Below, one piece after another: positions 8,842 through 64,000 of a stretch of 64,000 bases of DNA. Location of the stretch: positions 2,961,579 to 3,025,578 of the forward strand of contig CAWDEM010000008.1 of the NCBI GenBank assembly GCA_963801355.1, in the 5' to 3' direction. The DNA is from Ignavibacteriota bacterium (lineage in GTDB: Bacteria > Bacteroidota > Ignavibacteria > UBA10030 > UBA6906). The position numbers were made by a program, and so were the translations under genes. The notes below the pieces were generated by a model. The model ran no database searches. It was given only the letters and a program-made list of their open reading frames with translations, and was not told the origin of the DNA. How positions within the stretch are numbered: position 1 is the stretch's first letter; each line of letters begins with the position of its first letter.

Positions 8842-10895
8842 CTCTCGAGAAGTTTTTCTTGAAATGTCGGCTGGGCACCCGCCATCGCCAGGAAGATGTC
8901 GAGCGGCACGACCTCGAACTCCGGCCCCAGCTTGTCAAGGATGTTCTTGACCCGTTTGATGTCCGTCCACTGCCGTACGTGCATCAGCAGGAAGTAGGGA
9001 CGTGCGCTGTTCATTGCCGCGAGCTCCTGGAGATCAGCCACCGCCTCGGCCTCGGGCCGTGTCTCGGAAAGATAATAGTCGAATGAAACAAGCGGACGCC
9101 CGTTCCGCGATGCAAATGAATGCGAGGCGGTATAGCCGTTCACAAAACCAACCGCATCCGGCATGCCGGCATAAAATGCATCCACCACATCGCGTGTGAG
9201 TTCGGTGTTGCCCTCAACCGTCGCACCCTCGGAATAGTCCATGATCTCAAAGACATTCAAATCCAGCTGCTTCATTAACTCGTACGCTTTGGAAACGACC
9301 TGCGGGAGAAAGGCCTTGGGGATGGCTTTGGGATACATGTATCCGGGTCCGCCGAGCGAACCGATGAAATAATCATTCGGCGTCGCCATGCCGTAGAAAT
9401 ACTCCAGCATGGTCGGAGCCAGCCAGACCCAGTTCATGGTCACTTCCCAGGCGTAAGGAATCTCACCCCGCCCCGGCTTGAGCCATGCGCCGATGCCCAG
9501 ACAATCGGTCTCTATTGCGGCGATGTAGACTTTCTTCTCCCGTGCGGGGATCTTCCCCGGAACGAGATGGTGGTTGTTCTTGAATGTGAAGCCCGGCGTC
9601 AGGGCCGTCTGGCTGCAGAAACTCATGTTGGGCAGTGTGTGCAGGCCTTCAACGCGCAGCGCATAGCTGGAGGCCAGTTTGACGTGGTCACGTTCCTTGT
9701 CCTTTGCATACGAATGCCAGCCCATGACCAGCGACAGAGGTTTCATCTCGCTGAAGATCTTGTTGGCAAGTGCATATTCCTCCGTGTCAGCAGGTTTTGT
9801 CGAGAGGTCGGTGAAGAATGCCTGCTTGAGCATTCCGAAATCCGCGACACCGGGCCGCATGATCTTCCCGTGTTCGCCTCCCAGCCAGACCACAAACTCT
9901 TTGCTGCAACGGTCCCAGTACTGTTCGATCGCCCAGCGATAGATTGCGGCGTCGTTTTTTCCCGTGAACTTGCCGCGGAAGTCAGCCACGGGCCTGAGCC
10001 CTGCCCGCTCCACCATCGGGATCAGCTCTTCGCTGACGACAACCGCCTTCTCCAATCCGGCAACGGTGTACGCAACGATGAGCGAGGTCCGCACGTTTTT
10101 GTCCCACACAACGTAGCCTTTGACAAACGGACGCAGCGCCGCGAGGGCGGAGTCCGCCGTGCGCAATTCCGTGAATGAGTAATTGTGCTTCGTGCGATAG
10201 TAATCATAGACCGACTGCGTGAACGTATAATCCCACTTTTCACCGTAGATGAAATAGAGCCGTGGCGCCCCGGTGTTGGCCACGCCCTGCAGACTGATAA
10301 GGAACGCCTGTTCCGGCAGCTTCCCGTCAATTGCCCAGTTGTCGGTCATACGCATGACATAGGCCGTGCGGGCATTCGTCCGTACAAAAGTGTATGTGGG
10401 CGCGGACGCCTTCGGACGCGTCGGCCGCTCTATCCGCCAGGTGAGCGTGCCGCCGTCGGCGGAAAGGGTGAACACATTCTCCACCGTATACGGCAACATC
10501 CCCTGCGACACGAGTACGGAGTAGCGTTCGTTGATGTACAGCACCCTGCCATTCTGTTCTGTGCGGGCGCTGACTGCCTTCGTCTTGCCGGGCTGCATTG
10601 ACACGCCCATGAACACATTCGTGGGCCAGACACGGTCACGCACGGGCACCGTCACAGTCGCACCCCCGGAGGGCAGCGTCACGGAGTCCCGGAAACCGCG
10701 GGCTCCTCCCCAGTTCTGTACCACTGTCACAAGATCGCCGGAGTGCGTGATCCGCAGCGCCACGGTGGAGTAGAGATCGATCTCTGAACTCTTTTCGGGA
10801 AGCATCTTCCAGTCACCGTCCATCGTTGCAGGCTGGGCCATGCACAACGCAAAAGCGGCAACGCTGAGCAGCAGTGTGATAAGAAGTCTGCGCAT
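8838..10895 (-). CDS. Secreted GxGYxYP-domain putative glycoside hydrolase (paralog 2)
   Basis: Signal peptide; SLQGVAN..PRLY, KGYVVWD and GPGYMYP signature. Confidence 0.85.
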   Translation of the reverse strand: MRRLLITLLLSVAAFALCMAQPATMDGDWKMLPEKSSEIDLYSTVALRITHSGDLVTVVQNWGGARGFRDSVTLPSGGATVTVPVRDRVWPTNVFMGVSMQPGKTKAVSARTEQNGRVLYINERYSVLVSQGMLPYTVENVFTLSADGGTLTWRIERPTRPKASAPTYTFVRTNARTAYVMRMTDNWAIDGKLPEQAFLISLQGVANTGAPRLYFIYGEKWDYTFTQSVYDYYRTKHNYSFTELRTADSALAALRPFVKGYVVWDKNVRTSLIVAYTVAGLEKAVVVSEELIPMVERAGLRPVADFRGKFTGKNDAAIYRWAIEQYWDRCSKEFVVWLGGEHGKIMRPGVADFGMLKQAFFTDLSTKPADTEEYALANKIFSEMKPLSLVMGWHSYAKDKERDHVKLASSYALRVEGLHTLPNMSFCSQTALTPGFTFKNNHHLVPGKIPAREKKVYIAAIETDCLGIGAWLKPGRGEIPYAWEVTMNWVWLAPTMLEYFYGMATPNDYFIGSLGGPGYMYPKAIPKAFLPQVVSKAYELMKQLDLNVFEIMDYSEGATVEGNTELTRDVVDAFYAGMPDAVGFVNGYTASHSFASRNGRPLVSFDYYLSETRPEAEAVADLQELAAMNSARPYFLLMHVRQWTDIKRVKNILDKLGPEFEVVPLDIFLAMAGAQPTFQEKLLER

Positions 10896-10928
10896 GAAAT
10901 CTCCGTTTGTACTGATAATTCAGACCTG

Positions 10929-13007
10929 TTATTTCACGAGGAATTTCTCCTTGAACGTCGGGGACTTCCCCGCCATTTTCAGGAACCGGTCCAGGGGCAC
11001 CACTTCGAAACCCGGGCCAAGTTTATCGAGTATCCCCTTTACCCGCTTGACGTCGCTTGACTCGCGCACGTGCATGAGCAGGAAGTAGGGGCGCCGGTCG
11101 TTGATGCGGGCAAGCTCCTGCAGATCAGCCACCGCATCGGCTTCCGGACGCTCGGGGGAAAGATAATAATCATACGAAATGAAGGGCTTCCCGTCACGCA
11201 CAGTGAACGTGTACGAGGGGACGTAGCCGTTCACGAAACCAATGGCTTCGGGCATTCCCTCATAGTACATATCAACAACGGCTTTGGGCAGTTCGGTGTT
11301 CCCTTCCACCGTTGCGCCTTCGGAAAAGTCCATGGTCTCGAACACTGTGAGATCGAGTGTCTTCATCTGCTCCCGCGCCATCGCAATGAGCTTCTTGAGA
11401 AGATGCGGTGGAACGGCTTTCGGATACATGTACCCCGGACCGGAGAGACACCCGATGAAGTAATCATTCGGTGTTGCCATGGTATAGAAGTACTCCGCCA
11501 TGGAGGGGGCCATCCAGGTGTAGTTCATCAGTACCTCCCAGGCATAGGGGATTTCGCCCCGTCCCGGTTTCAACCACGCACCCAGGCCGATCCCGTCAGT
11601 CTGTATACACGTAATATAGACCTTGTTCTCCGGCGTGTACTCCTTGCCCGGAACAATGGTATGATTGTTCTTGTATACAAAGCCCTGTGAGGCGGGCAGC
11701 TGGGCGCTGAAGCTCAGGTTGGGAAGGGTGTGCAGGCCTTCAACGCGGTGACCGTAGGTGGATGTGAGCTTCACAAATTCCCGCTCGAGATCCTTTGCAT
11801 ACGAGTGCCACCCCATCACCATGGACATCGGTTTCATTTCGCGCAGAAGCCGGTTCGCCAGCGCGTATTCGGCTGTATCCGTCGTGCGGCAGGAAAGGTC
11901 GTTGAAAAACACATTCTTATATATCCCCCAATCCGCCACCGCGGGCTTCATGATGTCGCCGTGTTCCCCGCCGAGCCAGATGATGAATTCCTTGCTGCAC
12001 CGCGGCCAGTACTGCGCATAGGCCCATGCATAGATCTGGGCGTCGGTCTGGCCGGTGAACCTGCCGCGGAAATCCTCGATCCGTTTCAATCCGAGCTGCT
12101 CCGCAAGGGGAATCTGATCCTCGCTCAAGACAACGGCATTCTCAAGACCTGCAACCGTGAACGCAACGATGAGCGATGTGCGGACCTTCTTGTCCCATAC
12201 CACATACCCTTTCACGTCCTTCACAAGCGTGCGCAGGGCTTCCTCCGGCGACTTCAATGTGCGGAACGTGTAGTGCCGTTTGTCGCGGTAGAAATCGTAT
12301 ACGGATTGCACGTACGTGAACGGCCAGTCTTTCGGATACAGAATGTACATCCGCGGTCCGCTCTTGTTGACGATCCCCTGCAGGCTGATCAGCATGGCCT
12401 GAACATCCAGACGCCCGCGGACTTCCCAGTTGTCTTCCAGCGTGATTGCGTACGCCTCCTTCGATCCCGACCGTTTCAGGCGGAATGTCATGGGCGGTCC
12501 TGACGTCCGTGTGGAACGGGTGAGGTCATACGTCAGTAATTCGCCGTCGGGGGAAAGCTCGAAGCGATGCGTCACACTCTCCGGATGACTTCCCTGTGAC
12601 CCCACGATCTGAAATGTCTCCTCCACGCGGAATAGTCCGGGGCTTTCACGCTTGGCGCTGACTTTTCGCGTGCCCCCGACCGGCATGGAGAGTCCCATGA
12701 AGACGTTCGTCGGGAAGACCCTGTTGTTCACGGCCACAGAGACCTGGCTCCCATCCAGCGGGAGGCGGAGTGAGTCCCTGAAGATCCTCTCTTTGCCGAA
12801 CTGCCGGATAAGGGTAAGATGCGTGTCGGAGAAGCGCACGTCCACGGACAGGCTTCCGTACAGATCGATGTCCGTGCTTTGCGCGGCAAGGGATTCCCAT
12901 TTGCCTTCAATACCGGAAGCGCCGGAGGCGGTGGCGCAGAGGGTGGTGAGGAACGTCGCAAACAGGGCGGTCAGGAACATTGAGGAAAGTACCGTCAGAC
13001 GGTGCAT
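10929..13007 (-). CDS. Secreted GxGYxYP-domain putative glycoside hydrolase (paralog 1)
   Basis: Signal peptide; SLQGIVN..PRMY, KGYVVWD and SGPGYMYP signature; colinear with the neighbouring paralog. Confidence 0.85.
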   Translation of the reverse strand: MHRLTVLSSMFLTALFATFLTTLCATASGASGIEGKWESLAAQSTDIDLYGSLSVDVRFSDTHLTLIRQFGKERIFRDSLRLPLDGSQVSVAVNNRVFPTNVFMGLSMPVGGTRKVSAKRESPGLFRVEETFQIVGSQGSHPESVTHRFELSPDGELLTYDLTRSTRTSGPPMTFRLKRSGSKEAYAITLEDNWEVRGRLDVQAMLISLQGIVNKSGPRMYILYPKDWPFTYVQSVYDFYRDKRHYTFRTLKSPEEALRTLVKDVKGYVVWDKKVRTSLIVAFTVAGLENAVVLSEDQIPLAEQLGLKRIEDFRGRFTGQTDAQIYAWAYAQYWPRCSKEFIIWLGGEHGDIMKPAVADWGIYKNVFFNDLSCRTTDTAEYALANRLLREMKPMSMVMGWHSYAKDLEREFVKLTSTYGHRVEGLHTLPNLSFSAQLPASQGFVYKNNHTIVPGKEYTPENKVYITCIQTDGIGLGAWLKPGRGEIPYAWEVLMNYTWMAPSMAEYFYTMATPNDYFIGCLSGPGYMYPKAVPPHLLKKLIAMAREQMKTLDLTVFETMDFSEGATVEGNTELPKAVVDMYYEGMPEAIGFVNGYVPSYTFTVRDGKPFISYDYYLSPERPEADAVADLQELARINDRRPYFLLMHVRESSDVKRVKGILDKLGPGFEVVPLDRFLKMAGKSPTFKEKFLVK

Positions 13008-13841: not shown

Positions 13842-14351
13842 CTACTCTGATTTCTTGGGCTTCTCCGAGGAGGCCTGAAACCAGATCCCCGCCGCCGCAA
13901 GAACAATCATGATCGGCGTTGCCAGGGATGGGGAAAGCTGGAACGCACCCACCAGCAGGTACGCACCCACGACGGAGGAAAGAATAATCAACGCCCATTT
14001 CAGAAGGAAATGGGCGAGGACGATACCCAGGAGCGCGCAGAGGATCACCGGAATCCACGGGAACCCCTGGGGCAGCCATCCCATGTAATCTGCGAGAGCG
14101 TATCCTGCGTATCCGCCGCCGAGGATTCCAGCCAGGAAGACTCCCACCTTTTCAATGAAGAATGCAACGGCAAACCCCGCCAGGCCGCCCATGATCATCG
14201 CTGCGATCATGACGCCGTTTGACGGGTGTTGAAGATACATGCCGGCAAGTGCGATGCCTGCCATGGCACCGAGAGCGGTAAGGAACAACGCCAGCCCCTT
14301 GCGTCCGAATATAAGAAGGGCCGCACCAATCACCCCTTGAACAATTTGCAT
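13842..14351 (-). CDS. Membrane protein (DUF4203/TMEM198-like)
   Basis: Gly-rich multi-TM protein with LLIFGRK, SSVVGA and GIWFQ. Confidence 0.7.
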   Translation of the reverse strand: MQIVQGVIGAALLIFGRKGLALFLTALGAMAGIALAGMYLQHPSNGVMIAAMIMGGLAGFAVAFFIEKVGVFLAGILGGGYAGYALADYMGWLPQGFPWIPVILCALLGIVLAHFLLKWALIILSSVVGAYLLVGAFQLSPSLATPIMIVLAAAGIWFQASSEKPKKSE

Positions 14352-45888: not shown

Positions 45889-47744
45889 TTGAGCAAGTAC
45901 AGATGGAAACTGCTGGTCATTGTAGCTACTGTTGGTCTTGCGCTCTACTTTCTGTACCCCACGTACAGGGACTACGAGCTTCACTCCCAGTTGAAAGGGC
46001 TTCACGGATCCGACAGCCTGCAGTTCGTCGAACAGAACGAGACCGAGCTCCGGGAAAACCGGGCGAAACGCATCAAGCTTGGCCTTGACCTGCAAGGCGG
46101 CATGCGCGTGGTGCTTGAGGTAAACGTCCTCAAACTCCTGGAAGACCTGGGAAAGAACAAGGACGAAGCATTCGCGAAGATCATGGCGGAAGTCCGTGAA
46201 GAAGTCAAGAAGACCGATGAATCCCCCGTTATCCTCATGCGCCGCAAGTTTGAAGCGCAACAGATCAGGATGAGCCGGTACTACGGCAGCCTGCGCGACG
46301 ACAACGACAAAGTCGCTTCAATGCTGGAGGATGAATCCAAGAAGGCGATCGACCGCGCTATTGAAATCGTCGGCAACCGTGTCGACCAGTACGGCGTATC
46401 TGAGCCATCCATCCAGAAACTGGGCGGCACCCGTATCAACGTGGAGCTTCCCGGCGTCAGCAAGGAAACCGAAGTACGCCAGCTGCTGCAGGGGACCGCT
46501 CTCCTGGAGTTCAAGCTGCTGAAAGACCCCGATGTCGCATACCGCATCATGGAGTCGATCGACAAGACACTGGCCTCCAGCGGCGCTGCTGACACTACAG
46601 ACACGACTCTTGCAGCCAAGGCAGGGTTCACCGATACCTCGAAGATCACCACCCCCGAGGGGGAGATGGACGCGGAGCAGTTCGCAAAGAAGCACCCCTT
46701 CTTCACCGTCGCCCTGGTGAGCCAGCAGTATCCCGGTGAGGCGCTCGTGGCCGAAGACAACCGCGATAAGATCCGGCGCTGGCTTGACCGCGACGATGTC
46801 GTCCGCTCCATCCCCGGTGATATTCAGTTCCTCTGGAGCGCCAAGCCGCGCACCATGGAGGGCGGCAAGAAATATTTTGTGCTCTACCCCGTGAAAAGCA
46901 CCGCGGAACTGACAGGCGGCGTCATTGTGAATGCGAAGGCGACACTGGACCCCAGCTTCAATCAACCCATCGTGACGATGGAGATGAACAGCGAGGGATC
47001 CCGCGAATGGTCGCGCATCACCGGCGCCAATGTGAATAAACGCATTGCCATCGTGATGGACAATGCGGTCTTCTCCGCCCCGGTCGTCCGCAACAAGATC
47101 ACCGGCGGCCATTCCCAGATTGAAGGAATGGACAACCTTGACGAAGCCCGCCTGCTCGAGATCGTGCTGAAAGCCGGTGCACTCCCCGCACCTGTGGAGA
47201 TTATCGAACAGCGTTCCGTCGGGCCGTCACTTGGTGAAGACTCCATCCGCAACGGCATCACGGCATCCGTTCTTGCCGTCGTGCTCACGAGTCATCTTCA
47301 TGGCCTTCTACTACCATACCGGCGGCCTGGTGGCTGACTTCGCGATTGGTGTTCTGCATGCTCTTCCTGCTGGGCGTCCTGGCGGCATTTCAGGGAACGC
47401 TCACGCTTCCGGGCATCGCGGGCATCATTCTGACCCTTGCCGTCGCCGTGGATGCGAACGTTCTGATTTATGAGCGTATCCGCGAAGAACAGGCCACCGG
47501 CAAGACGCTGCGTGCGGCCATCGACGCAGGCTACGAAAAAGCGTTCAGCGCGATTTTCGACTCAAACCTGACAACGTTCATCTCTGGCGTGATTCTGTAC
47601 CAATTCGGCAGCGGTCCAATTCAAGGGTTCGCCCTCACGCTGATGATCGGTATTGTTGCGTCGATGTTCAGCGCAATCTATATCACGCGCGCGGTCTTCT
47701 ATATCCTGACCGACCGATACGGGTCAAAGGTCACATTCGGTTAA
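45889..47744 (+). CDS. secD: Protein translocase subunit SecD (two apparent +1 frameshifts, 47290 and 47345)
   Basis: LGLDLQGG, RVDQYGVSEP, AGALPAP, VGPSLG, LTLPGIAG and VDANVLIYERIRE motifs. Confidence 0.95.
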
Positions 47745-47769: not shown

Positions 47770-48689
47770 ATGCGGTTTTTCAAGAAAACATCTATCGACT
47801 TCATGGGGAAACGCACGACCTGGTACATGGTATCAGGCATGGTGATCCTCATCGGCATGGTGACTCTGGCACTGCGGGGGGTCGACTTCGGCATTGACTT
47901 CCTCGGCGGCACCGAACTCGTCGTGCACTTCAACGAGCCCGTTTCCATCAGCGATGTCCGTACGTCCATGGACCGCATCGGCATGGGCAAGGCGGAAATC
48001 AAGACGTTCGGCAGCGACCAGGATATCCTGATCCGCACGGCCGAACAGGCCGAAGGGACCACCATCGGCGACCGGATGCTCGCGGCATTGAAAGAATCCT
48101 TCCCCGCCAATCCGTACACGGTGCTGAAGGAAGACAAGATCGGCCCCAAGATTGGCGCTGAGTTGCGCCGCAACGCCCTCTATGCCGTTCTCGCATCGGT
48201 GATTGCCATCGGCATCTACATCGGGTTCCGGTTCAAGATGGTCTACGGCGTCGGCGCTGTCGTGGCATTGTTCCATGACGTTCTCGTGACACTCGGGATG
48301 ATCGCCATCTTCAACGGCGTCTTCAATCTCGAAATCAACCAGAACATGATCGCCGCATTCCTGACTCTTGTCGGTCTGTCGGTGAACGACACCGTGGTGG
48401 TCTTCGACCGTATCCGCGAAAACCAGAAGATATTCCGAACCATGAACATCTGCCGATCTGATGAACAAGAGCATTAACGAGACGCTCAGCCGGACTATCA
48501 TCACTTCCGGAACAATCCTCATAGTGCTTATTGTCCTGCTGCTGGTCGGCGGTGAAGTCTATGCGCGGATTCGCTTTTGCACTGACGGTCGGTATAGTCG
48601 TGGGTACCTATTCGTCCATCTTCGTTGCCAGCGCCGTCGCACTCGACTGGACACTCAAAACGAAGACGTCCGGCAAACTCATCGAGTAA
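47770..48689 (+). CDS. secF: Protein translocase subunit SecF (two apparent +1 frameshifts, 48451 and 48560)
   Basis: GIDFLGG, ALFHDV, NDTVVVFDRIRE, TLSRTI and GTYSSIFVA motifs spread across three frames; TAA at 48687-48689. Confidence 0.95.
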
Positions 48690-49148: not shown

Positions 49149-51624
<2,476 letters not shown>

Positions 51625-55749: not shown

Positions 55750-58700
55750 TCATTCTTCACTCGCCATGGGAAGTGTCACGGTGATCGTCGTGCCCTGATC
55801 AGGCCCGCTGTCGACGGCGAACGATCCGCCCAGCAACTCTGCACGTTCCCGCATGCCAAGCAATCCAAAGCCATGTCCTTCAGCACGCATGTCGGCCATA
55901 TCACTGCGCACAATCCCCTGCCCGTTGTCGTGGATGCGCAATTCCAGCGATGCGTTCTGCCGTGAAAGGTTGATTTCCACCGCTGTGGCATGTGCATGCT
56001 TGGCGATATTCGCCAATGCTTCCTGGGAAATGCGGTAGAGGGCAATCTCTGAATCACCAGGGAGATCCGTGGGAATACCCTCAGTACAAAGAATGCTGGT
56101 GGCAATGCCCTGGCGCTTTTCAAAATCTTTTGCCAGGAGCCGGAGTGCCGTCACAAGGCCGAAGTCATCAAGCACGCTCGGACGGAGGTTTGAGGAGATC
56201 CTCCGCACCTCAGCAATTGACCGGTCCAGTTCCTCCCGCACATCCCGCAGCTGCTTCGCCATCTTGCGGTCACCCGGTGCACCTTCTTCTTCCAACACTT
56301 CTACGCGGAACTTCATTCCGCTGAGTCGCTGGCAGAGGTCATCGTGAAGCTCCCGCGATATGCGGGCCCGCTCTTCTTCCTGTGCCCGTTGCATGGATGA
56401 CGCAAAACGCCTGAGCCCCGCAATTCGCTCCTGTTCAGCCTTTTCGACTTGCTCGACCATCGCGTTGAACCTATCACCCACAAGCCGCAGTTCGTCCCTT
56501 CCGGTCAGATGCACCTTCTGCGACAGATCGCCTTTTCCGACTTTCTCCATCACCGACATCAGGTGTGCCAGCGGCTTGGTGATGCTGCGCGTCATCCAGA
56601 TTCCGGCAAGTATACCGGAAATCAGACTGATACCCAACACTCCAAGAATTGTGTTGTTCGTGGTACGACCTGCGACAAGAAGTTCGTCCTTTGTACGGGT
56701 CAGGTTGAGCTCCGTGCGTGCCTGTACGCGGTCGTTGAGCGTTGAAGCCAGGCTTCGATAGGAACCCATGAATGCATCCAGATGCGCCCGCCGGGTTTTC
56801 TCCGACTCAATGAGCGTGCGGGCAAGCTGCAGTTCGCGAGCCGATCGCCGTTGCAGTTCCTCGGCCCAGCGTTTCTCCTCGGCGGTAAGAAGCACCACCT
56901 GGTGGACACGCAGGAACTCCGAGAACTGCTTCTCCGCGACACTCAACTGGTCTGTGAATTTGTCCTCCCCCGTCAGCAGATAATTGCCTAGACTTTTGGC
57001 GAGCTCATTCATCTGTACTTGCATGCCGAGTGCAACCTGGAGCCGACGGTAGGCGATGGGGTCGGTTACGCTAATGGAACGGAGAATACGGTCTGACAGC
57101 AGTGCGTCGATTGCCTGGAGCTCATCACGCAGCGCAGTTCAGATCCCTGCACTTGCACGTCACGCAGGCGCACCTGCTCGAGTGCCGCATCGTGAAAACT
57201 GACAATTGAATCCTGCAGGTCTTGCCTCAAACGGGCAAATCGCGCAAGTTCAACAACGCCCGTTTCTTCCTTCCGGCTGCTGTCAAGCTCTTCCGGTTTT
57301 CGCTCTAGCGCGCCGAGCAACCGGCGGTCTCCCGTGGCAGAGTAGGCAAGTGTGGCGAAGGCCGTTTCGGCAAGATCGTTTTCGATGGCATAGACTGCAG
57401 AGTTGACAGGCTCCCGCACTTGCGTCAGCTCTTCCAGCTTGTCGTTTACAGCGTTCGTCTGCGTATACGACACCAGGCCGATCACCACACACAGCACAAG
57501 CAGCACACCGATGCCCAGCCCGAGTTTCGCTCCGATGAAGTCGACGCGAACGATCCGCCAGCAACTCGCACGTTCCGCATGCCAAGCAATCAAAGCCATG
57601 TCTTCAGCAGCATGTCAGCCATATCACTGCGACAATCCCCTGCCGTGTCGTGATGGCAATTCCAGCGATGCGTTCTGCCGTGAAAGCTGGATTTCCGCCG
57701 CTGTGGCATGCGCATGCTTGGCGATATTCGCAATGCTTCCTGGGAAATGCGGTAGAGGGCAATCTCGAGGTCACCAGGGAGATCCGTGGGAATACCCTCA
57801 CCACAATGAATCCCGGTGGCAATGCCCTGGCGCTTTTCAAAATCTTTCGCCAGGAGCCGGAGTGCCGTCACAAGGCCAAAGTCGTCGAGCACGCTCGGAC
57901 GGAGGTTCGAAGAGATCCTCCGCACCTCCGCAATTGACCGGTCCAGCTCCTCTCGCACATCCCGCAGCTGCTTCGCCATCTTGCGGTCACCCGGTGCACC
58001 TTCTTCTTCCAACACTTCTACGCGGAACTTCATTCCGCTGAGTCGCTGGCAGAGGTCATCGTGAAGCTCCCGTGATATGCGGGCCCGTTCTTCTTCCTGT
58101 GCCCGTTGCATGGATGACGCAAAGCGCCTGAGCCCCGCAATTCGCTCCTGTTCAGCTTTCTCGACCTGCTCGACCATCGCGTTGAACCTATCACCCACAA
58201 GACGCAGTTCGTCCCTTCCGGTCAGATGCACCTTCTGCGACAGATCGCCTTTTCCGACTTTCTCCATCACCGACATCAGGTGTGCCAGCGGCTTGGTGAT
58301 GCTGCGCGTCATCCAGATTCCGGCAAGTATACCGGAAATCAGACTGATACCCAACACTCCAAGAATTGTGTTGTTCGTGGTACGTCCTGCGACAAGAAGT
58401 TCGTCCTTTGTACGGGTCAGGTTGAGCTCCGTGCGTGCCTGTACGCGGTCGTTGAGCGTTGAAGCCAGGCTTCGATAGGAACCCATGAAAGCATCCAGAT
58501 GCGCCCGCCGGGTTTTCTCCGACTCAATGAGCGTGCGGGCAAGCTGCAGTTCGCGAGCCGATCGCCGTTGCAGTTCCTCGGCCCAGCGTTTCTCCTCGGC
58601 GGTAAGAAGCACGACCTGGTGGACGCGCAGGAACTCCGAGAACTGCTTCTCCGCGACACTCAACTGGTCTGTGAATTTGTCCTCCCCCGTCAACAGATAA

Positions 58701-59260
58701 TTGCCCAGACTCTTGGCGAGCTCATTCATCTGTACTTGCATGCCGAGTGCAACCTGGAGCCGACGGTAGGCGATGGGGTCGGTTACGCTGATGGAACGGA
58801 GAATACGGTCTGATAGCAGTGCATCGATTGCCTGGAGCTCATCACGCAGTGCAGTTAGATCCCTCACTTGCACGTCACGAAGGCGCACCTGCTCGAGTGC
58901 CGCATCGTGAAAACTGATAATTGAATCCTGCAGGTCTTGCCTCAAACGGGCAAATCGCGCAAGTTCAACAACGCCCGTTTCTTCCTTCCGGCTGCTGTCA
59001 AGCTCTTCCGGTTTTCGCTCTATTGCACCGAGCAACCGGTGATCTCCCGTGGCAGAGTAAGCAAGTGTGGCGAAGGCCGTTTCGGCAAGATCGTTTTCGA
59101 TGGCATAGACTGCGGAGTTGACAGGCTCCCGCACTTGCGTCAGCTCTTCCAGCTTGTCGTTTACAGCGTTCGTCTGCGTATACGACACCAGGCCGATCAC
59201 CACACACAGCACAAGCAGCACACCGATGCCCAGCCCGAGTTTCGCTCCGATGTTCAGCAT
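55750..59260 (-). CDS. NarX-type (HisKA_3) HAMP sensor kinase, present as two overlapping partial copies (55750-57537 and 57540-59260)
   Basis: ERARISRELHDDLCQ, QEALANI.KH, DNGQG and GLLGMRERA motifs; one copy lacks the start and has frameshifts, the other has a degraded C-terminus. Confidence 0.85.
55810..59252. repeat. ~1.7-kb tandem duplication (55810-57537 versus 57540-59252)
   Basis: Colinear copies with synonymous differences; many 1-bp deletions in 57540-57735. Confidence 0.95.
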
Positions 59261-59693: not shown

Positions 59694-59951
59694 ATGGTCC
59701 TCCTTATTGTGTGTGTTCGACGAGGGTAGATTAGACTTCGACTAAGAGGCAACACGCTTCGTAGTGCAAAGCTAGATAGGTGTTGGAGCAATGTCAATAG
59801 GTCCATTTGCCTCACAACACACCCTCACAGACACCCCTTGTTTCGGGCCTGGTTTCCGCATCTACCCATAGCACCCATATCTTCCGGGTTTGAAGAGTTT
59901 GAAAATTCTTCGTACCCTATGACAACTGAATCTCGAACCCGGAGGATACGT

Positions 59952-60226
59952 ATGAACACCGCCACACACGCCGCAGCCGCAGCAGTCGCCCAGGCCATCA
60001 AAGCCTCGGGCGCCATCGTGAAGATCTCCCCTGAAGGATTCAAGACATTGCTCCAGCGGGCGAAAGAGCCACTGGTCATTGTTTCCCAGGGCGGGGTATT
60101 TTCAAAGAAGTTTGAGTACTTGATGGGCTATAAAGGACTTGTCTTTTTTACGAGTTCCAAGGAGCAACTCGGCTTCACGTCTGGCGTGGAGATTGTCACG
60201 TCGAGAAGATCTGGATACCGGGCTGA
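59952..60226 (+). CDS. Small conserved hypothetical protein (frameshift near 60204)
   Basis: GGAGG RBS; AAAAVAQAIKASGAIV..Y...YKGL.F; natural-looking end KIWIPG-TGA lies in the adjacent frame. Confidence 0.65.
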
Positions 60227-60269
60227 AGGACAATCTACTTTCAGATATCTGAACTCGGATTTTCCAGCC

Positions 60270-60992
60270 ATGCAAAAGAATTCATCGTCCGTGAAGGCTA
60301 CTCCTCTCATCGCCCCTGAGCCCATCGATCCTGTAGTCAGGTACGTTCCTCTCTTCCTTCGTCTGTTGCTCTATGTGTTCCTGACCTGGTTCCTGATCGA
60401 GGCCATCCCGATCTTCTATTCGTATGATCCAAACGAACCCTGGCCGCGTCTCATCTGGATATTCCGTACGTTCACGTTCCTGCCGCTTCATGAAGGGGGG
60501 CACATTCTCTTTATCCTCTTCGGCAGAACGCTCTACGCTCTGGGTGGATCATTCTGGCAGATTGTGTTCCCGCTGCTCTGGTTCATCATTGCCATGAAAC
60601 AGCGGTCGCAGGTCGCCCCCTTCCCTCTCTTCTGGGTGGGAGAAAATATGATGGATGTGAGTCTCTACATCCGTGACTCACAGGACATGGTACTGCCGCT
60701 GCTCGGTGGTCACAAATCGGGACACGACTGGCATTTTCTGCTAACGAGGTGGGACCTGATTGATTCCTGTCAGGAGATAGCAGATGTCATGTATTTCGCG
60801 GGAGTGATTGTCTCTATTGCGGGGATTATCGGCGGGATTGTCTGGGCGCTTGTGGCGTTCTATCGATCAGGGAAAACCCGCAGCACCGGTATCCGGTACT
60901 TTACAAACGAGAGAGTGATTGACTATGGTCAATCGACTATAGACCATCGTCAACCGTTCTCCCCCGCCAGCCTTGCAATCTGCAGCAGATAG
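60270..60992 (+). CDS. Membrane protein with HExxH motif (M50-like)
   Basis: LHEGGH, GGS..Q, W.GEN..DV..YI.D, LPLLGG and HDW motifs; 3' end uncertain (may stop near 60918). Confidence 0.7.
   Translation: MQKNSSSVKATPLIAPEPIDPVVRYVPLFLRLLLYVFLTWFLIEAIPIFYSYDPNEPWPRLIWIFRTFTFLPLHEGGHILFILFGRTLYALGGSFWQIVFPLLWFIIAMKQRSQVAPFPLFWVGENMMDVSLYIRDSQDMVLPLLGGHKSGHDWHFLLTRWDLIDSCQEIADVMYFAGVIVSIAGIIGGIVWALVAFYRSGKTRSTGIRYFTNERVIDYGQSTIDHRQPFSPASLAICSR
60919..60953. repeat. Heptamer-period hairpin between convergent genes
   Basis: TTGACTATGGTC...GACCATCGTCAA (1 mismatch); units ATTGACT/ATGGTCA/ATCGACT/ATAGACC/ATCGTCA. Confidence 0.65.
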
Positions 60993-63900
60993 AACCGCAG
61001 CCGGTCCTGTTGTACCGCATTCAGGGCCTGCTCTTCGATCGACGCGATCCGTTCCACTTCCTTCATCGCCCGTATGATCGTTGCAGGCACCTCCAGCTGA
61101 CCTTCCGCAGCGATGTTCAGATATTCCACCGCAGCAGCAAGGAACTGCCGCATCTCATCATCGCCACGCGTCACCCGGAAATACGACGTGAGCGCCGAAG
61201 GCAAACGCACATCGCGCGACGCCAACTGGAAATCACGCGGCTGCATTTTCGATGAAATCGAATAGAGCGCCACGGCCAGCTCAACAAACGACTCGACACG
61301 CTCGAAGACCGGATGCTCCAGCAACGCCCACGCACGCGAACGCCAGAACCGGATCTCCTCCGGAATCCTTAGCAATCCCCCCACATCCTTCAACCAGACC
61401 TGATCAATCGAACCGTCAATCATCTCGCGCAAATGCTGTAGGTTCGTGTTGAACAGATCCGGCTGCAATAACACCGCCAGGTCCGGGCGAAGCGTAGGAA
61501 GCAGAGCGGCTTTGAAGCCAGCCGGTTCGAAGAAGTCACCCACATCGATGCCGTGTCTGCGCAACAATTCCTGCTGGAACAGTGGAATGTACTTCGCCAT
61601 TGCATCCACGTCTTCGCGCAGCGCAAGGAGTGCTGAGTTGCCTGCAGGGAATGCCCGCTCCAGTATCTGCAGGTGTTCAACGCCATGATAAAGCCGCAGC
61701 GTGTGGAGGATTTCGTAGACTGGCAGATGCGGAAGAATCCGGTCGGCCAAAAACGTCTCCGGATCTCCTTCCACCGATTCCCGGTGTGCAAAGGCATCCA
61801 GCGCGCGGAAGAGTCCGACGGTTAGCTGGTTGATTCCCAAAACTGCCGTCTGCGCCTGATTGTGTGCGATAGCCCGCAGGAGACTTCCATACCGCGCGAA
61901 GGGAATGGTCTCCGCAATCCGCTGGAGGATCCGATTGCCCTCCTCTTTGGCCGATTGTCCGGGACGTACACTAGGTCTGTCGCGGAGTGGCGGGGTTGTC
62001 CGCGCGATGAAATACGAAATAACATGCAGGCCCACAACATCTTCCTCGCGGCCATAGAGGATCTGCCGGAAATTCTCTGTCAGCACTTCCAGAAATCCGT
62101 CCAGTGCCTTGCTCTGCGCGCCAATGGTAAGTCGTTCAAGCGCCTGCTCCCCGCGTCTTGTGCTCTTGAAACGGCTCTGCGCAAACTCCTCGCACGCCCG
62201 GACAAGGTCACTGTGGTGTTTTTGTTGCTGTTTCGTGATGTGATACAGCAGTTGTGTCAGATCATGCACTGGGATGTGGCGTACCCGCTCGGCAATCGCA
62301 CTCTGGAATGTACGCAGGTCTCCACCCGAAAAGACACCCTGCATCGGTGTGGTTGCATAGAGCGTGCTTCTTCGCGTTGAAGCCCGCAGTTCCTTGGCAA
62401 ACCGCCGTGATGAGTTTTCGGATTGTTCGAATGCCGGCAAGCCACTCAGTTCACCGTAGTAGCCTCCCTGCCGCTGCATAGGTTCGCCGCTTCCCAACTT
62501 CAGCCGCACGTCATCGGCAAGGCCCCGTTCTCCAAGCCAGTGCATCAGCTCGAACTTCGCCTGCCGGTATATCCTCGCGCCGGCGGTCTGACCTACATTT
62601 TGACTCAGGTCGGAACCCGCAATAAACACTTCGGCAATCATCTCTCCAAAACGGTCGCGGGTCTCCTGGTTCAGCCTCCTGCTCTGAAGTGCATGCTCCC
62701 ACAGTTTGTTCAGATATCCCGTCAGACCACGCACCGCTTCCACATCTTCAAAAAGCGGGATCAGCCATACTGAAGGGAGTACGAGGTCGGGGTGGTCGCG
62801 AAGCGCATGTTCGCGCCGTGCATGGAACTTCCGGTCCAGGGCAATCAGAGCCTCCGGCCGTGACGACATGCTTACCTGGAGTCCCAGCACGAGTCCCGGA
62901 TTGCCATACTCTGCCCCGATCTCATTGATCTCAGTGATATTGAACACCGTGGTATCGATGGCAAACTGGTCCTGCGCCGTCACCATGTTCTGCTGAATGC
63001 GCGGCGTGATCACAATGCGCTGCAGGAGATCGCGATAGAGCACCGCTTCACGCAGCAGCGCCGGATCACCGATATTCCGCTGCATCGCCGGAATCAGTCC
63101 ATGCAACTCCTTGCGGAGCCGTTTGTTGAGACTCCCGTAGGACTCCAGTGCCTCACGTCGTTTCCGGCGCAGCTCCAGCATCCGCCGCTCCAGCCTGTCG
63201 TTGTGATGCCAGAGCGTAGTAACCGGATCGCTGGCTACGTGAAGCGACATGCCGATGCGCCGCCAGGTTCCCGCTTGAGCATAGAACGGCAGAATCCCCC
63301 GGTAGCGCCGTTCAAGCTGGTGCGTCAGCCCGGTGATTTCATTGAGCAGGTCAATAAAACGGTGCGACTTTGCCTGCAGCTGCTCCATCTCGTCCTGCAA
63401 TTCCGGCGAAATCCGCACCGTCCCGTCCCGTTCCATAAGCATCCTGAGCAGGCGTGACATCCGCTGGACATTTTGCATCAGTACAGACCCGACAAGGTTG
63501 TGCCCCTGTCCGGAGGGACGGTTGCTTCCGTCCCAGTCTCCCCAGAACGAGAGAAACGTCGGCGGCAATCCCGCACCTTCGATCTCTCCACACAGCTCTG
63601 CGGCGATGTGAGCATCCAGATCAATGATGACTTCCTCCGCTTCGCCGCTTGAAGTAATCGCGACATTGAGGCCGAGAAATTCATTTACGAGGTCACGGGC
63701 TACCCGGGAGAGCTGCACGCGCGATGCCTCCCCGCCGCGAATCATCTCGTGCAGTATCGCATCAAAGGAAGCTTCTGTCCGGATGGAGTACATCTGCGTC
63801 GGATGTACCGTACGATCGAACAACCGGTGTGTGAATGCCTCCTCCCGGCGCTTCAGAGAATCCTTGTAGAATTCTTTCTCCATGCTGCGCGCGAGTGTCT

Positions 63901-64000
63901 TTCCATTGTCATTCCGCGCAAGCGCACAATAGTCTTCGGCAAGGGTCAGACGATCCATGTACCGTTGACGGAACACCGCAATACGTGCAGGCAAGAATTC
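60950..64000 (-). CDS. Divergent phosphoenolpyruvate carboxylase-like protein (5' truncated by the window edge)
   Basis: Colinear motifs TVHPTQ, SFWGDWDGS, IPLFED, FIAGSD, GSGEPMQRQGG, TFQSA, LRAIAH and C-terminal GENG; frame is open to the window end. Confidence 0.7.
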   Translation of the reverse strand, partial: EFLPARIAVFRQRYMDRLTLAEDYCALARNDNGKTLARSMEKEFYKDSLKRREEAFTHRLFDRTVHPTQMYSIRTEASFDAILHEMIRGGEASRVQLSRVARDLVNEFLGLNVAITSSGEAEEVIIDLDAHIAAELCGEIEGAGLPPTFLSFWGDWDGSNRPSGQGHNLVGSVLMQNVQRMSRLLRMLMERDGTVRISPELQDEMEQLQAKSHRFIDLLNEITGLTHQLERRYRGILPFYAQAGTWRRIGMSLHVASDPVTTLWHHNDRLERRMLELRRKRREALESYGSLNKRLRKELHGLIPAMQRNIGDPALLREAVLYRDLLQRIVITPRIQQNMVTAQDQFAIDTTVFNITEINEIGAEYGNPGLVLGLQVSMSSRPEALIALDRKFHARREHALRDHPDLVLPSVWLIPLFEDVEAVRGLTGYLNKLWEHALQSRRLNQETRDRFGEMIAEVFIAGSDLSQNVGQTAGARIYRQAKFELMHWLGERGLADDVRLKLGSGEPMQRQGGYYGELSGLPAFEQSENSSRRFAKELRASTRRSTLYATTPMQGVFSGGDLRTFQSAIAERVRHIPVHDLTQLLYHITKQQQKHHSDLVRACEEFAQSRFKSTRRGEQALERLTIGAQSKALDGFLEVLTENFRQILYGREEDVVGLHVISYFIARTTPPLRDRPSVRPGQSAKEEGNRILQRIAETIPFARYGSLLRAIAHNQAQTAVLGINQLTVGLFRALDAFAHRESVEGDPETFLADRILPHLPVYEILHTLRLYHGVEHLQILERAFPAGNSALLALREDVDAMAKYIPLFQQELLRRHGIDVGDFFEPAGFKAALLPTLRPDLAVLLQPDLFNTNLQHLREMIDGSIDQVWLKDVGGLLRIPEEIRFWRSRAWALLEHPVFERVESFVELAVALYSISSKMQPRDFQLASRDVRLPSALTSYFRVTRGDDEMRQFLAAAVEYLNIAAEGQLEVPATIIRAMKEVERIASIEEQALNAVQQDRLRFYLLQIARLAGENG

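Follow-up and report, generated by a model that had tools for sequence, protein, structure and literature searches.

The window analyzed here, a stretch of 64,000 nucleotides from an Ignavibacteriota bacterium (GenBank assembly GCA_963801355.1, contig CAWDEM010000008.1, positions 2,961,579 to 3,025,578), ends inside a minus-strand gene whose product resembles phosphoenolpyruvate carboxylase (PEPC). Within the window, this gene is represented by a single open frame of 1016 codons at positions 60950-64000 (-), which terminates with a TGA stop codon at 60950-60952 and continues without any stop up to the last base of the window, leaving its 5' end open. The last base of the window is also the last base of contig C8; the gene was thus truncated by the assembly and not by a stop codon. 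The open frame was shown to be the C-terminal half of a multidomain fusion protein of approximately 1865 residues, in which it follows an aminotransferase dependent on pyridoxal 5'-phosphate (PLP). Full-length relatives retrieved with phmmer are 1830-1950 amino acids (aa) long and carry the window part at their C-terminal end; the closest of them, being 94% identical, features an open frame of 1880 codons from stop to stop and a called gene of 1865 aa. The aminotransferase domain PF00155 was present in 120 of the 120 long relatives among the matches listed. A stand-alone C-terminal half was not shown among the shorter relatives (558-1778 aa), which were mostly labelled partial, located on short contigs or representing split-gene loci. 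The initial annotation had described a large PEPC-like protein of more than 1015 aa and had counted its size as a bacterial-type feature. The length agrees with the 1016-codon frame and understates the protein of approximately 1865 aa; a large PEPC standing alone is not present, and the size of the frame is uninformative on the PEPC type, because the frame is preceded by an aminotransferase within one and the same protein.

The remainder of the gene was found on other contigs of the assembly. Contig C2 (18.8 kb) matches the final 10 kb of the window at approximately 90% identity, extends beyond the end of C8 and carries the whole gene, namely an N-terminal part of 849 residues (start MTTTS...) followed by the part homologous to the window. 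The C2 copy harbors a one-base insertion, resulting in a frameshift near residue 90 of the window part; this is due to a sequencing error or else marks the copy as a pseudogene. The extra base is located in L003 around 14200-14226, as judged against the window and locus L036, and shifts the frame after '...IRG.EAS'. Contig C3 likewise starts within the gene, where an open frame of 774 residues (C3:2-2323, minus strand) shares 91% identity with the C2 copy over residues 6-762. C3 is most likely the continuation of C8, approximately 87 residues of the protein falling in the gap between the two contigs, which measures about 260 bp when compared with C2. That C2 bridges the end of C8 and the start of C3 probably accounts for the break of the assembly inside the PEPC-like gene. 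In total, six small contigs (C1, C2, C3, C5, C6, and C7) show 84-96% identity among themselves or with parts of the two large contigs, C4 or C8, and they are probably haplotigs of a second strain.

The gene is real and under purifying selection, with ratios of non-synonymous to synonymous substitutions (dN/dS) between 0.07 and 0.11 over the whole domain in comparison with four relatives of 69-95% identity. A phmmer search of 1.84 billion representative proteins yielded 215 matches at E≤1e-3, and the 150 best of these 215 appear to be members of the same family or fragments thereof, PEPC membership not having been checked match by match. In public databases, the family is named 'aminotransferase', and the C-terminal half alone is referred to as 'hypothetical protein' without a Pfam domain.

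To the known PEPC families, the protein is related only distantly at the sequence level. The window protein produced no match to PF00311 (bacterial/plant PEPC) or PF14010 (archaeal-type PEPC) in Pfam even at E≤10, and no PEPC match was obtained from NCBIfam (E≤10) or from a single-sequence search of the PDB. The miss of PF00311 is not a fault of the model, because the same profile detects PEPC in 93 of 151 genomes sampled from the same phylum, with E values as low as 0. Searching 301 genomes of the phylum with PF14010 returned one match at E≤1e-10, which was a cross-match on a PF00311 gene. Among 35 relatives of the window protein, three match PF00311 (best E value 6.4e-4) and one matches PF14010 (E value 8.5e-3). 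Furthermore, profile-profile alignment with 24 canonical PEPCs using hhalign covered 681 columns, brought six motifs into register and achieved a score of 41.1 (P 0.0018), compared to scores between 20.4 and 33.1 for ten controls comprising the reversed template, eight block-shuffled templates and an unrelated N-half profile. A second profile pair gave a P value of 0.0017. The agreement of the motifs thus exceeds what chance would produce. The motif pairs in register were TVHPTQ/TAHPTE, the W..D..G loop, VSM/ISM, IPLFED/VPLFET and AGSDLSQ/GYSDSxKD, and, further downstream, KLGSGEPMQRQGG/FHGRGGxxGRGGG followed by LRAI/LRAI. All eight strings on which the initial annotation had based its proposal of PEPC-like motifs, in canonical order and none in canonical form, were recovered by string search of the window protein, each occurring once and in the order given. 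Language-model neighbours of the C-terminal half of one relative are PF00311 clusters (score 0.90), which serves as a lead only.

An AlphaFold2 model of the C-terminal half, built with 33 relatives, reached a mean predicted local distance difference test score (pLDDT) of 84.1 and a predicted template modeling score (pTM) of 0.85. It features eight strands (residues 61-64, 150-157, 329-336, 373-377, 412-417, 457-461, 499-503, and 562-565) embedded in helices, each of the eight barrel strands ending in a family-invariant motif, while the low-confidence loops (pLDDT <50) at residues 157-160 and 504-511 occupy the places of the PEPC mobile loops. Comparison of the model with the PDB by means of Foldseek resulted in 67 matches at E≤1e-3, all of them PEPC among the matches listed, with E values of 6.3e-10 for the maize enzyme (5vyj), 1.8e-9 for the Escherichia coli enzyme (1fiy) and 3.7e-9 for the archaeal-type enzyme (3odm). 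Structural alignment with VIA-align placed 3odm_C at a Z score of 19.5 (root-mean-square deviation 3.6 Å, 493/530 residues aligned, model residues 54-1016, identity 16%), followed by plant PEPCs at 16.6-18.2 with 550-630 residues aligned and by E. coli 1jqn at 15.8. The best match outside PEPC was malyl-CoA lyase (Z score 13.4), for which 223 residues, corresponding to the barrel only, were aligned. In a search of 48,161 representative chains that was independent of Foldseek, the two PEPC representatives ranked first and second (Z scores 18.8 and 17.4, 3ODM being first and a bacterial/plant-type PEPC second), and the next chain reached 13.2. Judging from the model, the C-terminal half is a member of the PEPC superfamily with a TIM-barrel-plus-helices architecture, located outside both known sequence families.

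A closer affiliation to one of the two PEPC types is not defensible, because the Z scores are tied within about one unit. The archaeal-type PEPC of Clostridium perfringens (PF14010, 3ODM) is the best structural match to the C-terminal half; unlike this type, however, the window domain comprises 1016 residues, approximately 500 of them being extra and located in helical insertions, is fused to an aminotransferase and lacks a PF14010 match. Archaeal-type PEPC monomers are described as stand-alone enzymes of 55-60 kDa in a review (PMC8100219). Bacterial and plant PEPCs (PF00311; 1JQN, 1FIY, 5VYJ, maize 1JQO, and Arabidopsis 8OJ9) share the fold with the C-terminal half over model residues 1-1016, from its first helix to its last residue. 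In contrast to them, roughly the first 80-100 residues are missing, the alignments beginning at residue 79-105 of the PEPC chain, and the domain is fused behind approximately 850 residues of PLP-enzyme domains.

In its order of motifs and in its fold, the protein corresponds to a PEPC, and it could be asked whether an ordinary bacterial-type or archaeal-type enzyme is present that is odd only to the eye. This explanation has next to no probability, since neither Pfam profile recognizes the protein although PF00311 performs well elsewhere in the phylum; moreover, identity in the structural alignments to PEPC is 13-17%, the protein is a fusion, and the best phmmer matches resemble its own family. 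It was regarded as refuted by the Pfam misses, the phmmer result and the success of PF00311 in other genomes of the phylum.

The N-terminal half, located outside the window, was shown to adopt the fold of class I/II PLP aminotransferases, and none of the PLP-binding motifs is missing. In the C2 copy, residues 425-764 match PF00155 with an E value of 1.5e-14 (54.5 bits versus a cut-off of 19.7), and yeast Bna3 (3b46) was retrieved in a PDB sequence search at 7.7e-10. A model of this half (pLDDT 84.1, pTM 0.80) aligned with LysN, ACC synthase, C-S lyases, and kynurenine and aspartate aminotransferases at Z scores of 25.6-27.4, with approximately 320-390 residues aligned and spanning model residues 3-787. 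Across 31 sequences, the motifs NNPHNATG, DDLSY, SxSK(T) and FRLTLGG show full or nearly full conservation, K613 of SxSK being invariant. The fold, the PLP lysine, the asparagine of NPxNxTG, the D..Y pair and the C-terminal arginine are thus shared with class I/II aminotransferases (PF00155; LysN 2ZYJ, Bna3 3B46, and Thermus aspartate aminotransferase 1BJW), whereas an inserted seven-stranded domain, a long helix and the PEPC-like domain behind them set the protein apart. No known specificity class applies to the N-terminal half, because it scores far below every NCBIfam equivalog cut-off (for example, 26 versus 356 bits). Weak matches to PLP enzymes other than transaminases were detected for CobD threonine-phosphate decarboxylase (9.9e-6) and PatB C-S lyase (1.9e-5).

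The model of the N-terminal half suggests that the PLP fold is composed of an N-terminal arm and residues ~410-787, and that residues ~100-330 form an extra seven-stranded alpha/beta domain. This extra domain of the N-terminal half (L003:14486-17032, minus strand) comprises approximately 230 residues and interrupts the aminotransferase fold, a long helix following at 355-402; E250, N252, P255, N256, R262, E263, K309 and G310 are invariant within it. It is weakly similar to the large PLP domain (profiles N1 versus N2, hhalign P 0.008, probability 5%), values that make an internal duplication of the aminotransferase doubtful.

The positions of the individual motifs in the C-terminal half, together with their counterparts in canonical PEPC, are summarized in the table below. 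Conservation refers to the alignments A1 (34 sequences, 37-58% identical to the window protein) and A2 (35 closer sequences), and a reference position counts as canonical if at least 95% of the 24 PEPCs share its residue.

Motifs of the PEPC-like C-terminal half, their window coordinates and their PEPC counterparts
Motif	Residues	Window position	Strand	Structural element	Counterpart in canonical PEPC	Conservation
TVHPTQ	64-69	63794..63811	-	after strand 1	TAHPTE, H66 corresponding to the catalytic His (hhalign)	all six invariant in 34 and 35 sequences
FWGDWDGSNRP	152-162	63515..63547	-	strand 2 and flexible loop	W-x-G-G-D-R-D-G-N-P, register uncertain	W153, D155, W156, D157, G158, R161, P162 invariant
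TPRIQQ	332-337	62990..63007	-	strand 3	possibly DIRQ by strand order, not aligned by hhalign	T332, P333, R334 invariant
LQVSMS	374-379	62864..62881	-	strand 4	aligned to I-I-S-M-T	Q375, S377, M378 invariant in A1
IPLFED	414-419	62744..62761	-	strand 5	aligned to VPLFET, E418 corresponding to the metal-ligand Glu of PLFET	P415, L416, E418 invariant
FIAGSDLSQ	459-467	62600..62626	-	strand 6	aligned to MLGYSDSNKD, D464 corresponding to the metal-ligand Asp of GYSDSxKD, Q467 at the Lys position	F459, A461, G462, S463, D464, Q467 invariant
KLGSGEPMQRQGG	501-513	62462..62500	-	strand 7 and mobile loop	FHGRGGxxGRGGG	K501, G503, G505, E506 invariant; R510 at least 97%
TFQS	564-567	62300..62311	-	strand 8	possibly TEQGE by strand order, TEQGE placed elsewhere by hhalign	T564, Q566 invariant
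RDRPSVR	673-679	61964..61984	-		aligned to G-S-R-P-x-x-R	R673, D674, R675, P676, R679 invariant
LRAIAH	708-713	61862..61879	-		aligned to LRAIPW	R709, A710, I711, H713 invariant
GENG	1013-1016	60953..60964	-	C-terminus	canonical N-T-G, likewise ending on Gly	G1016 invariant in A1; N1015, G1013 at least 90%

Several hallmarks of canonical PEPC are kept in the family, namely the histidine of TAHPT, the glutamate of PLFE, the aspartate of SD, the second arginine of the glycine-rich loop (R510), SRPxxR, LRAI and the terminal glycine. As proposed in the initial annotation, the catalytic histidine and the metal-ligand residues are retained, H66, E418 and D464 being invariant in both alignments, and the conservation of R510, R675, R679 and R709 is complete or at least 97%. 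The loss of the SDSxK lysine was equally borne out. In the GENG tail, the asparagine and the terminal glycine are kept, the threonine is absent and the basic/Gln position is occupied by Glu; the hhalign alignment stopped before the C-terminus, and the structural alignments reach residue 1015/1016. The same annotation had put forward either a third PEPC lineage or a PEPC fold with altered chemistry, which turned out to be a fair description, since PEPC came first in all three fold searches and the window protein matches neither Pfam profile; nesting among ordinary PEPCs with a full-length PF00311 match did not occur.

In a contig collection with one genome per species, a pattern scan detected relatives at 340 places. 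The 80 places listed belong to Ignavibacteria, Melioribacteraceae, Kryptoniota, several Chloroflexota and metagenome-assembled genomes labelled Acidobacteria, and include Melioribacter strains and Rosettibacter (Rosettibacter primus) as cultured carriers. The fusion gene was found in 11 of 24 genomes of the window's family and in none of 16 genomes from other families of the order. Canonical PEPC (PF00311) was detected in none of the 24 genomes of the window's family; elsewhere, two of five fusion-bearing genomes tested also carry a canonical PF00311 gene. A complementary distribution with canonical PEPC was ruled out by these figures (0/24 PF00311 versus 11/24 fusion, plus the co-occurrence), and the fusion is not a simple replacement for PEPC, because both are present in the two genomes mentioned. 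Profile searches of the genome under study returned no match to PF00311, PF14010, PYC_OADA or PEPCK_GTP, and an ATP-dependent PEP carboxykinase is present. In a review, four PEPC types are distinguished, all of which fall within the two known sequence families (PMC8100219). No PEPC-aminotransferase fusion was described in the literature searched, with subscription journals being outside its coverage.

Directly upstream of the fusion gene and on the same strand, a gene encoding an SPFH-like protein of 321-344 aa was identified in 65 of the 80 loci from the one-genome-per-species collection. The other 15 loci comprise six without upstream DNA, six with a different gene on the opposite strand and three with an unclustered open reading frame (ORF) upstream. 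Most of the 63 gap lengths between the SPFH-like gene and the fusion gene fall within 8-30 bp, the full range being -59 to 243. The SPFH-like protein carries a hydrophobic helix at its N-terminus, and all three copies scanned weakly match Band_7 (PF01145) with E values from 6e-4 to 1e-2 and 16.4-20.3 bits; all three scores stay below the Pfam cut-off of 23.6. In the assembly studied, the SPFH-like gene resides on C2 (L003:17073-18041) and on C3. The literature searched contained no link between an SPFH protein and either PEPC or an aminotransferase. Beyond the SPFH-like gene, no neighbour was conserved across the family, and none provided a metabolic clue.

With respect to function, the PEPC-like barrel may make a 2-oxo acid from phosphoenolpyruvate (PEP), which would then be aminated by the PLP domain, the simplest course being the conversion of PEP and bicarbonate to oxaloacetate and further to aspartate. 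This reading is favored tentatively, just short of an even chance. By means of E418 and D464, the barrel would bind PEP together with a divalent metal, and with H66, R510, R675, R679 and R709 it would convert PEP to the 2-oxo acid, carboxylation to oxaloacetate being the simplest form of this step. Transamination of the product by the fused PLP domain would follow, yielding aspartate if this product is oxaloacetate. Altogether, a single polypeptide would lead from PEP to an amino acid, and the SPFH partner may anchor it at the membrane. In canonical PEPC, Mg2+ is bound via Glu and Asp, and a conserved His on a flexible loop deprotonates carboxyphosphate, as stated in a review (PMC10176493). 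Given that Q467 and S504 stand in place of the canonical Lys and Arg, the handling of bicarbonate or phosphate would differ from that of textbook PEPC.

In broader terms, the family could represent a third, unnamed lineage of the PEPC superfamily, one that works only when joined to a PLP aminotransferase in a polypeptide of approximately 1865 residues and that has a membrane SPFH scaffold as its partner, a proposal that seems plausible and yet somewhat more open to doubt than to belief. In one version of it, a self-contained machine tethered to the membrane would add bicarbonate to PEP and release aspartate without setting oxaloacetate free. In a bolder version, the remodelled pocket, with Gln for the SDSxK lysine and Ser for the first loop arginine, would run a PEP-dependent reaction new to this fold.

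A number of observations weigh against the carboxylation-transamination reading. At the sequence level, the hhalign probability was just 15%, the broader profile A1 retrieved only 3odm (3odm_A) from the PDB at an E value of 0.24, and the C-half profiles A2 and A4 found no PEPC among the PDB sequences, so that sequence alone is suggestive of PEPC homology and not decisive. The convergence of the conserved residues in one pocket was inferred from the barrel topology, and the reaction was deduced solely from fold and residues. LysN, ACC synthase, C-S lyases, and kynurenine and aspartate aminotransferases share the top rank among the matches of the PLP domain. Within the window's family, 13 of the 24 genomes have neither the fusion nor PF00311, and the co-occurrence with canonical PEPC elsewhere points in the same direction. 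Furthermore, the canonical lysine of SDSxK is an invariant Q467, the His and the first Arg of FHGRGG are replaced by L/M502 and S504, the Glu of TAHPTE by Q69, and the Trp residues of LRAIPWxxxW by H713 and Q717. In plant PEPC, a role in the binding of bicarbonate has been associated with the SDSxK lysine, and carboxylation may be lost because this residue is replaced by Q467.

Some of these observations fit well with a PEPC-fold domain that is catalytic and non-carboxylating, acting in another reaction on PEP or a related phosphoenol or 2-oxo acid, for example, bicarbonate-independent hydrolysis of PEP to pyruvate or another enolate-based C-C or phosphoryl transfer, with the PLP step then acting on that different product, as in the formation of alanine from pyruvate. 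Both metal ligands and the histidine are kept, while the SDSxK lysine, the first Arg and the His of the glycine-rich loop and both tryptophans behind LRAI gave way to residues that are themselves invariant, which argues for a retuned active site rather than decay. The co-occurrence with canonical PEPC and the weak matches of the PLP half to CobD and PatB are in line with this possibility as well, as are the next structural neighbours of the C-terminal half, which are enolate-handling barrels (malyl-CoA lyase, CLYBL, pyruvate kinase, and HpcH aldolase). On the other hand, PEPC is the clear best fold match over approximately 490-630 residues, including the C-terminal helices and the terminal glycine, and the neighbouring genes suggest no alternative substrate. 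Tryptophan, leucine and methionine residues form the hydrophobic CO2 pocket of PEPC, and the positions aligned to them (W156, L416, and F459) stay hydrophobic, which likewise speaks for carboxylation. A non-carboxylating enzyme is accordingly considered possible, but rather doubtful.

The loss of several canonical catalytic-loop residues could also indicate that the PEPC-like half is a non-catalytic pseudoenzyme with a regulatory or scaffolding role, sensing PEP, aspartate or a similar compound to control the aminotransferase, or organizing an SPFH assembly, for which the conserved membrane-scaffold neighbour would be fitting. PEPC is strongly allosteric, so its fold can bind effectors. A fused domain with a purely regulatory role has a precedent in the PTA domain of malic enzymes, as mentioned in a review (PMC8100219). 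However, the histidine, the glutamate, the aspartate and several arginines are invariant across members that are 37-58% identical to the window protein, the low dN/dS values extend over the whole domain, and the mobile loops are retained, making a pseudoenzyme unlikely.

The C-terminal half would add a PEPC lineage that is unseen by profile annotation. If it carboxylates PEP, as the carboxylation-transamination reading implies, an anaplerotic step of CO2 fixation is absent from metabolic models of these heterotrophs of sediments, soils and hot springs. A covalent PEPC-transaminase pair would represent natural channelling of an unstable 2-oxo acid and be of interest for pathway engineering. If the C-terminal half does not carboxylate, the family would show how the active site of PEPC can be retuned. 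The question of the reaction is directly testable, because cultured carriers exist (Melioribacter spp. and Rosettibacter primus).

The surroundings of the gene yielded additional minor observations. At 59838-60992 (+), a 384-codon ORF without a Pfam match, appearing membrane-like and containing an H-E-G-G-H string, is convergent with the PEPC-like gene, whose last 43 bases lie within the ORF; its counterpart on C2 is located at 10600-11403. In loci L041, L060, L068, L076, L082 and L111, the SPFH-like gene is absent and an opposite-strand gene lies upstream (cluster 16, median 408 aa), for which no Pfam match was obtained in the one copy scanned (a 265-aa ORF in L041). Other neighbours comprise two-component sensors in the window, uracil-DNA glycosylase on C2 and C3, and, in Melioribacteraceae, PspC, LiaF-like, sigma/anti-sigma, OsmC, MarR and arginase genes. 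The region 55750-59260 of the window contains two tandem copies, each of approximately 1.7 kb and 96% identical, of a 4HB_MCP-HAMP-HisKA_3 sensor-kinase gene, both of which look broken: one is split into 57066-57599 and 55750-57024, and the other (57590-59260) is devoid of the HATPase domain. Moreover, SecD/SecF is split (45889-47337 and 47770-48477), and the adenylosuccinate synthetase at 49406-50422 covers only profile positions 84-415. The latter two breaks look like frameshifts, which would stem from assembly errors of the indel type or from decay of genes close to the end of the contig.

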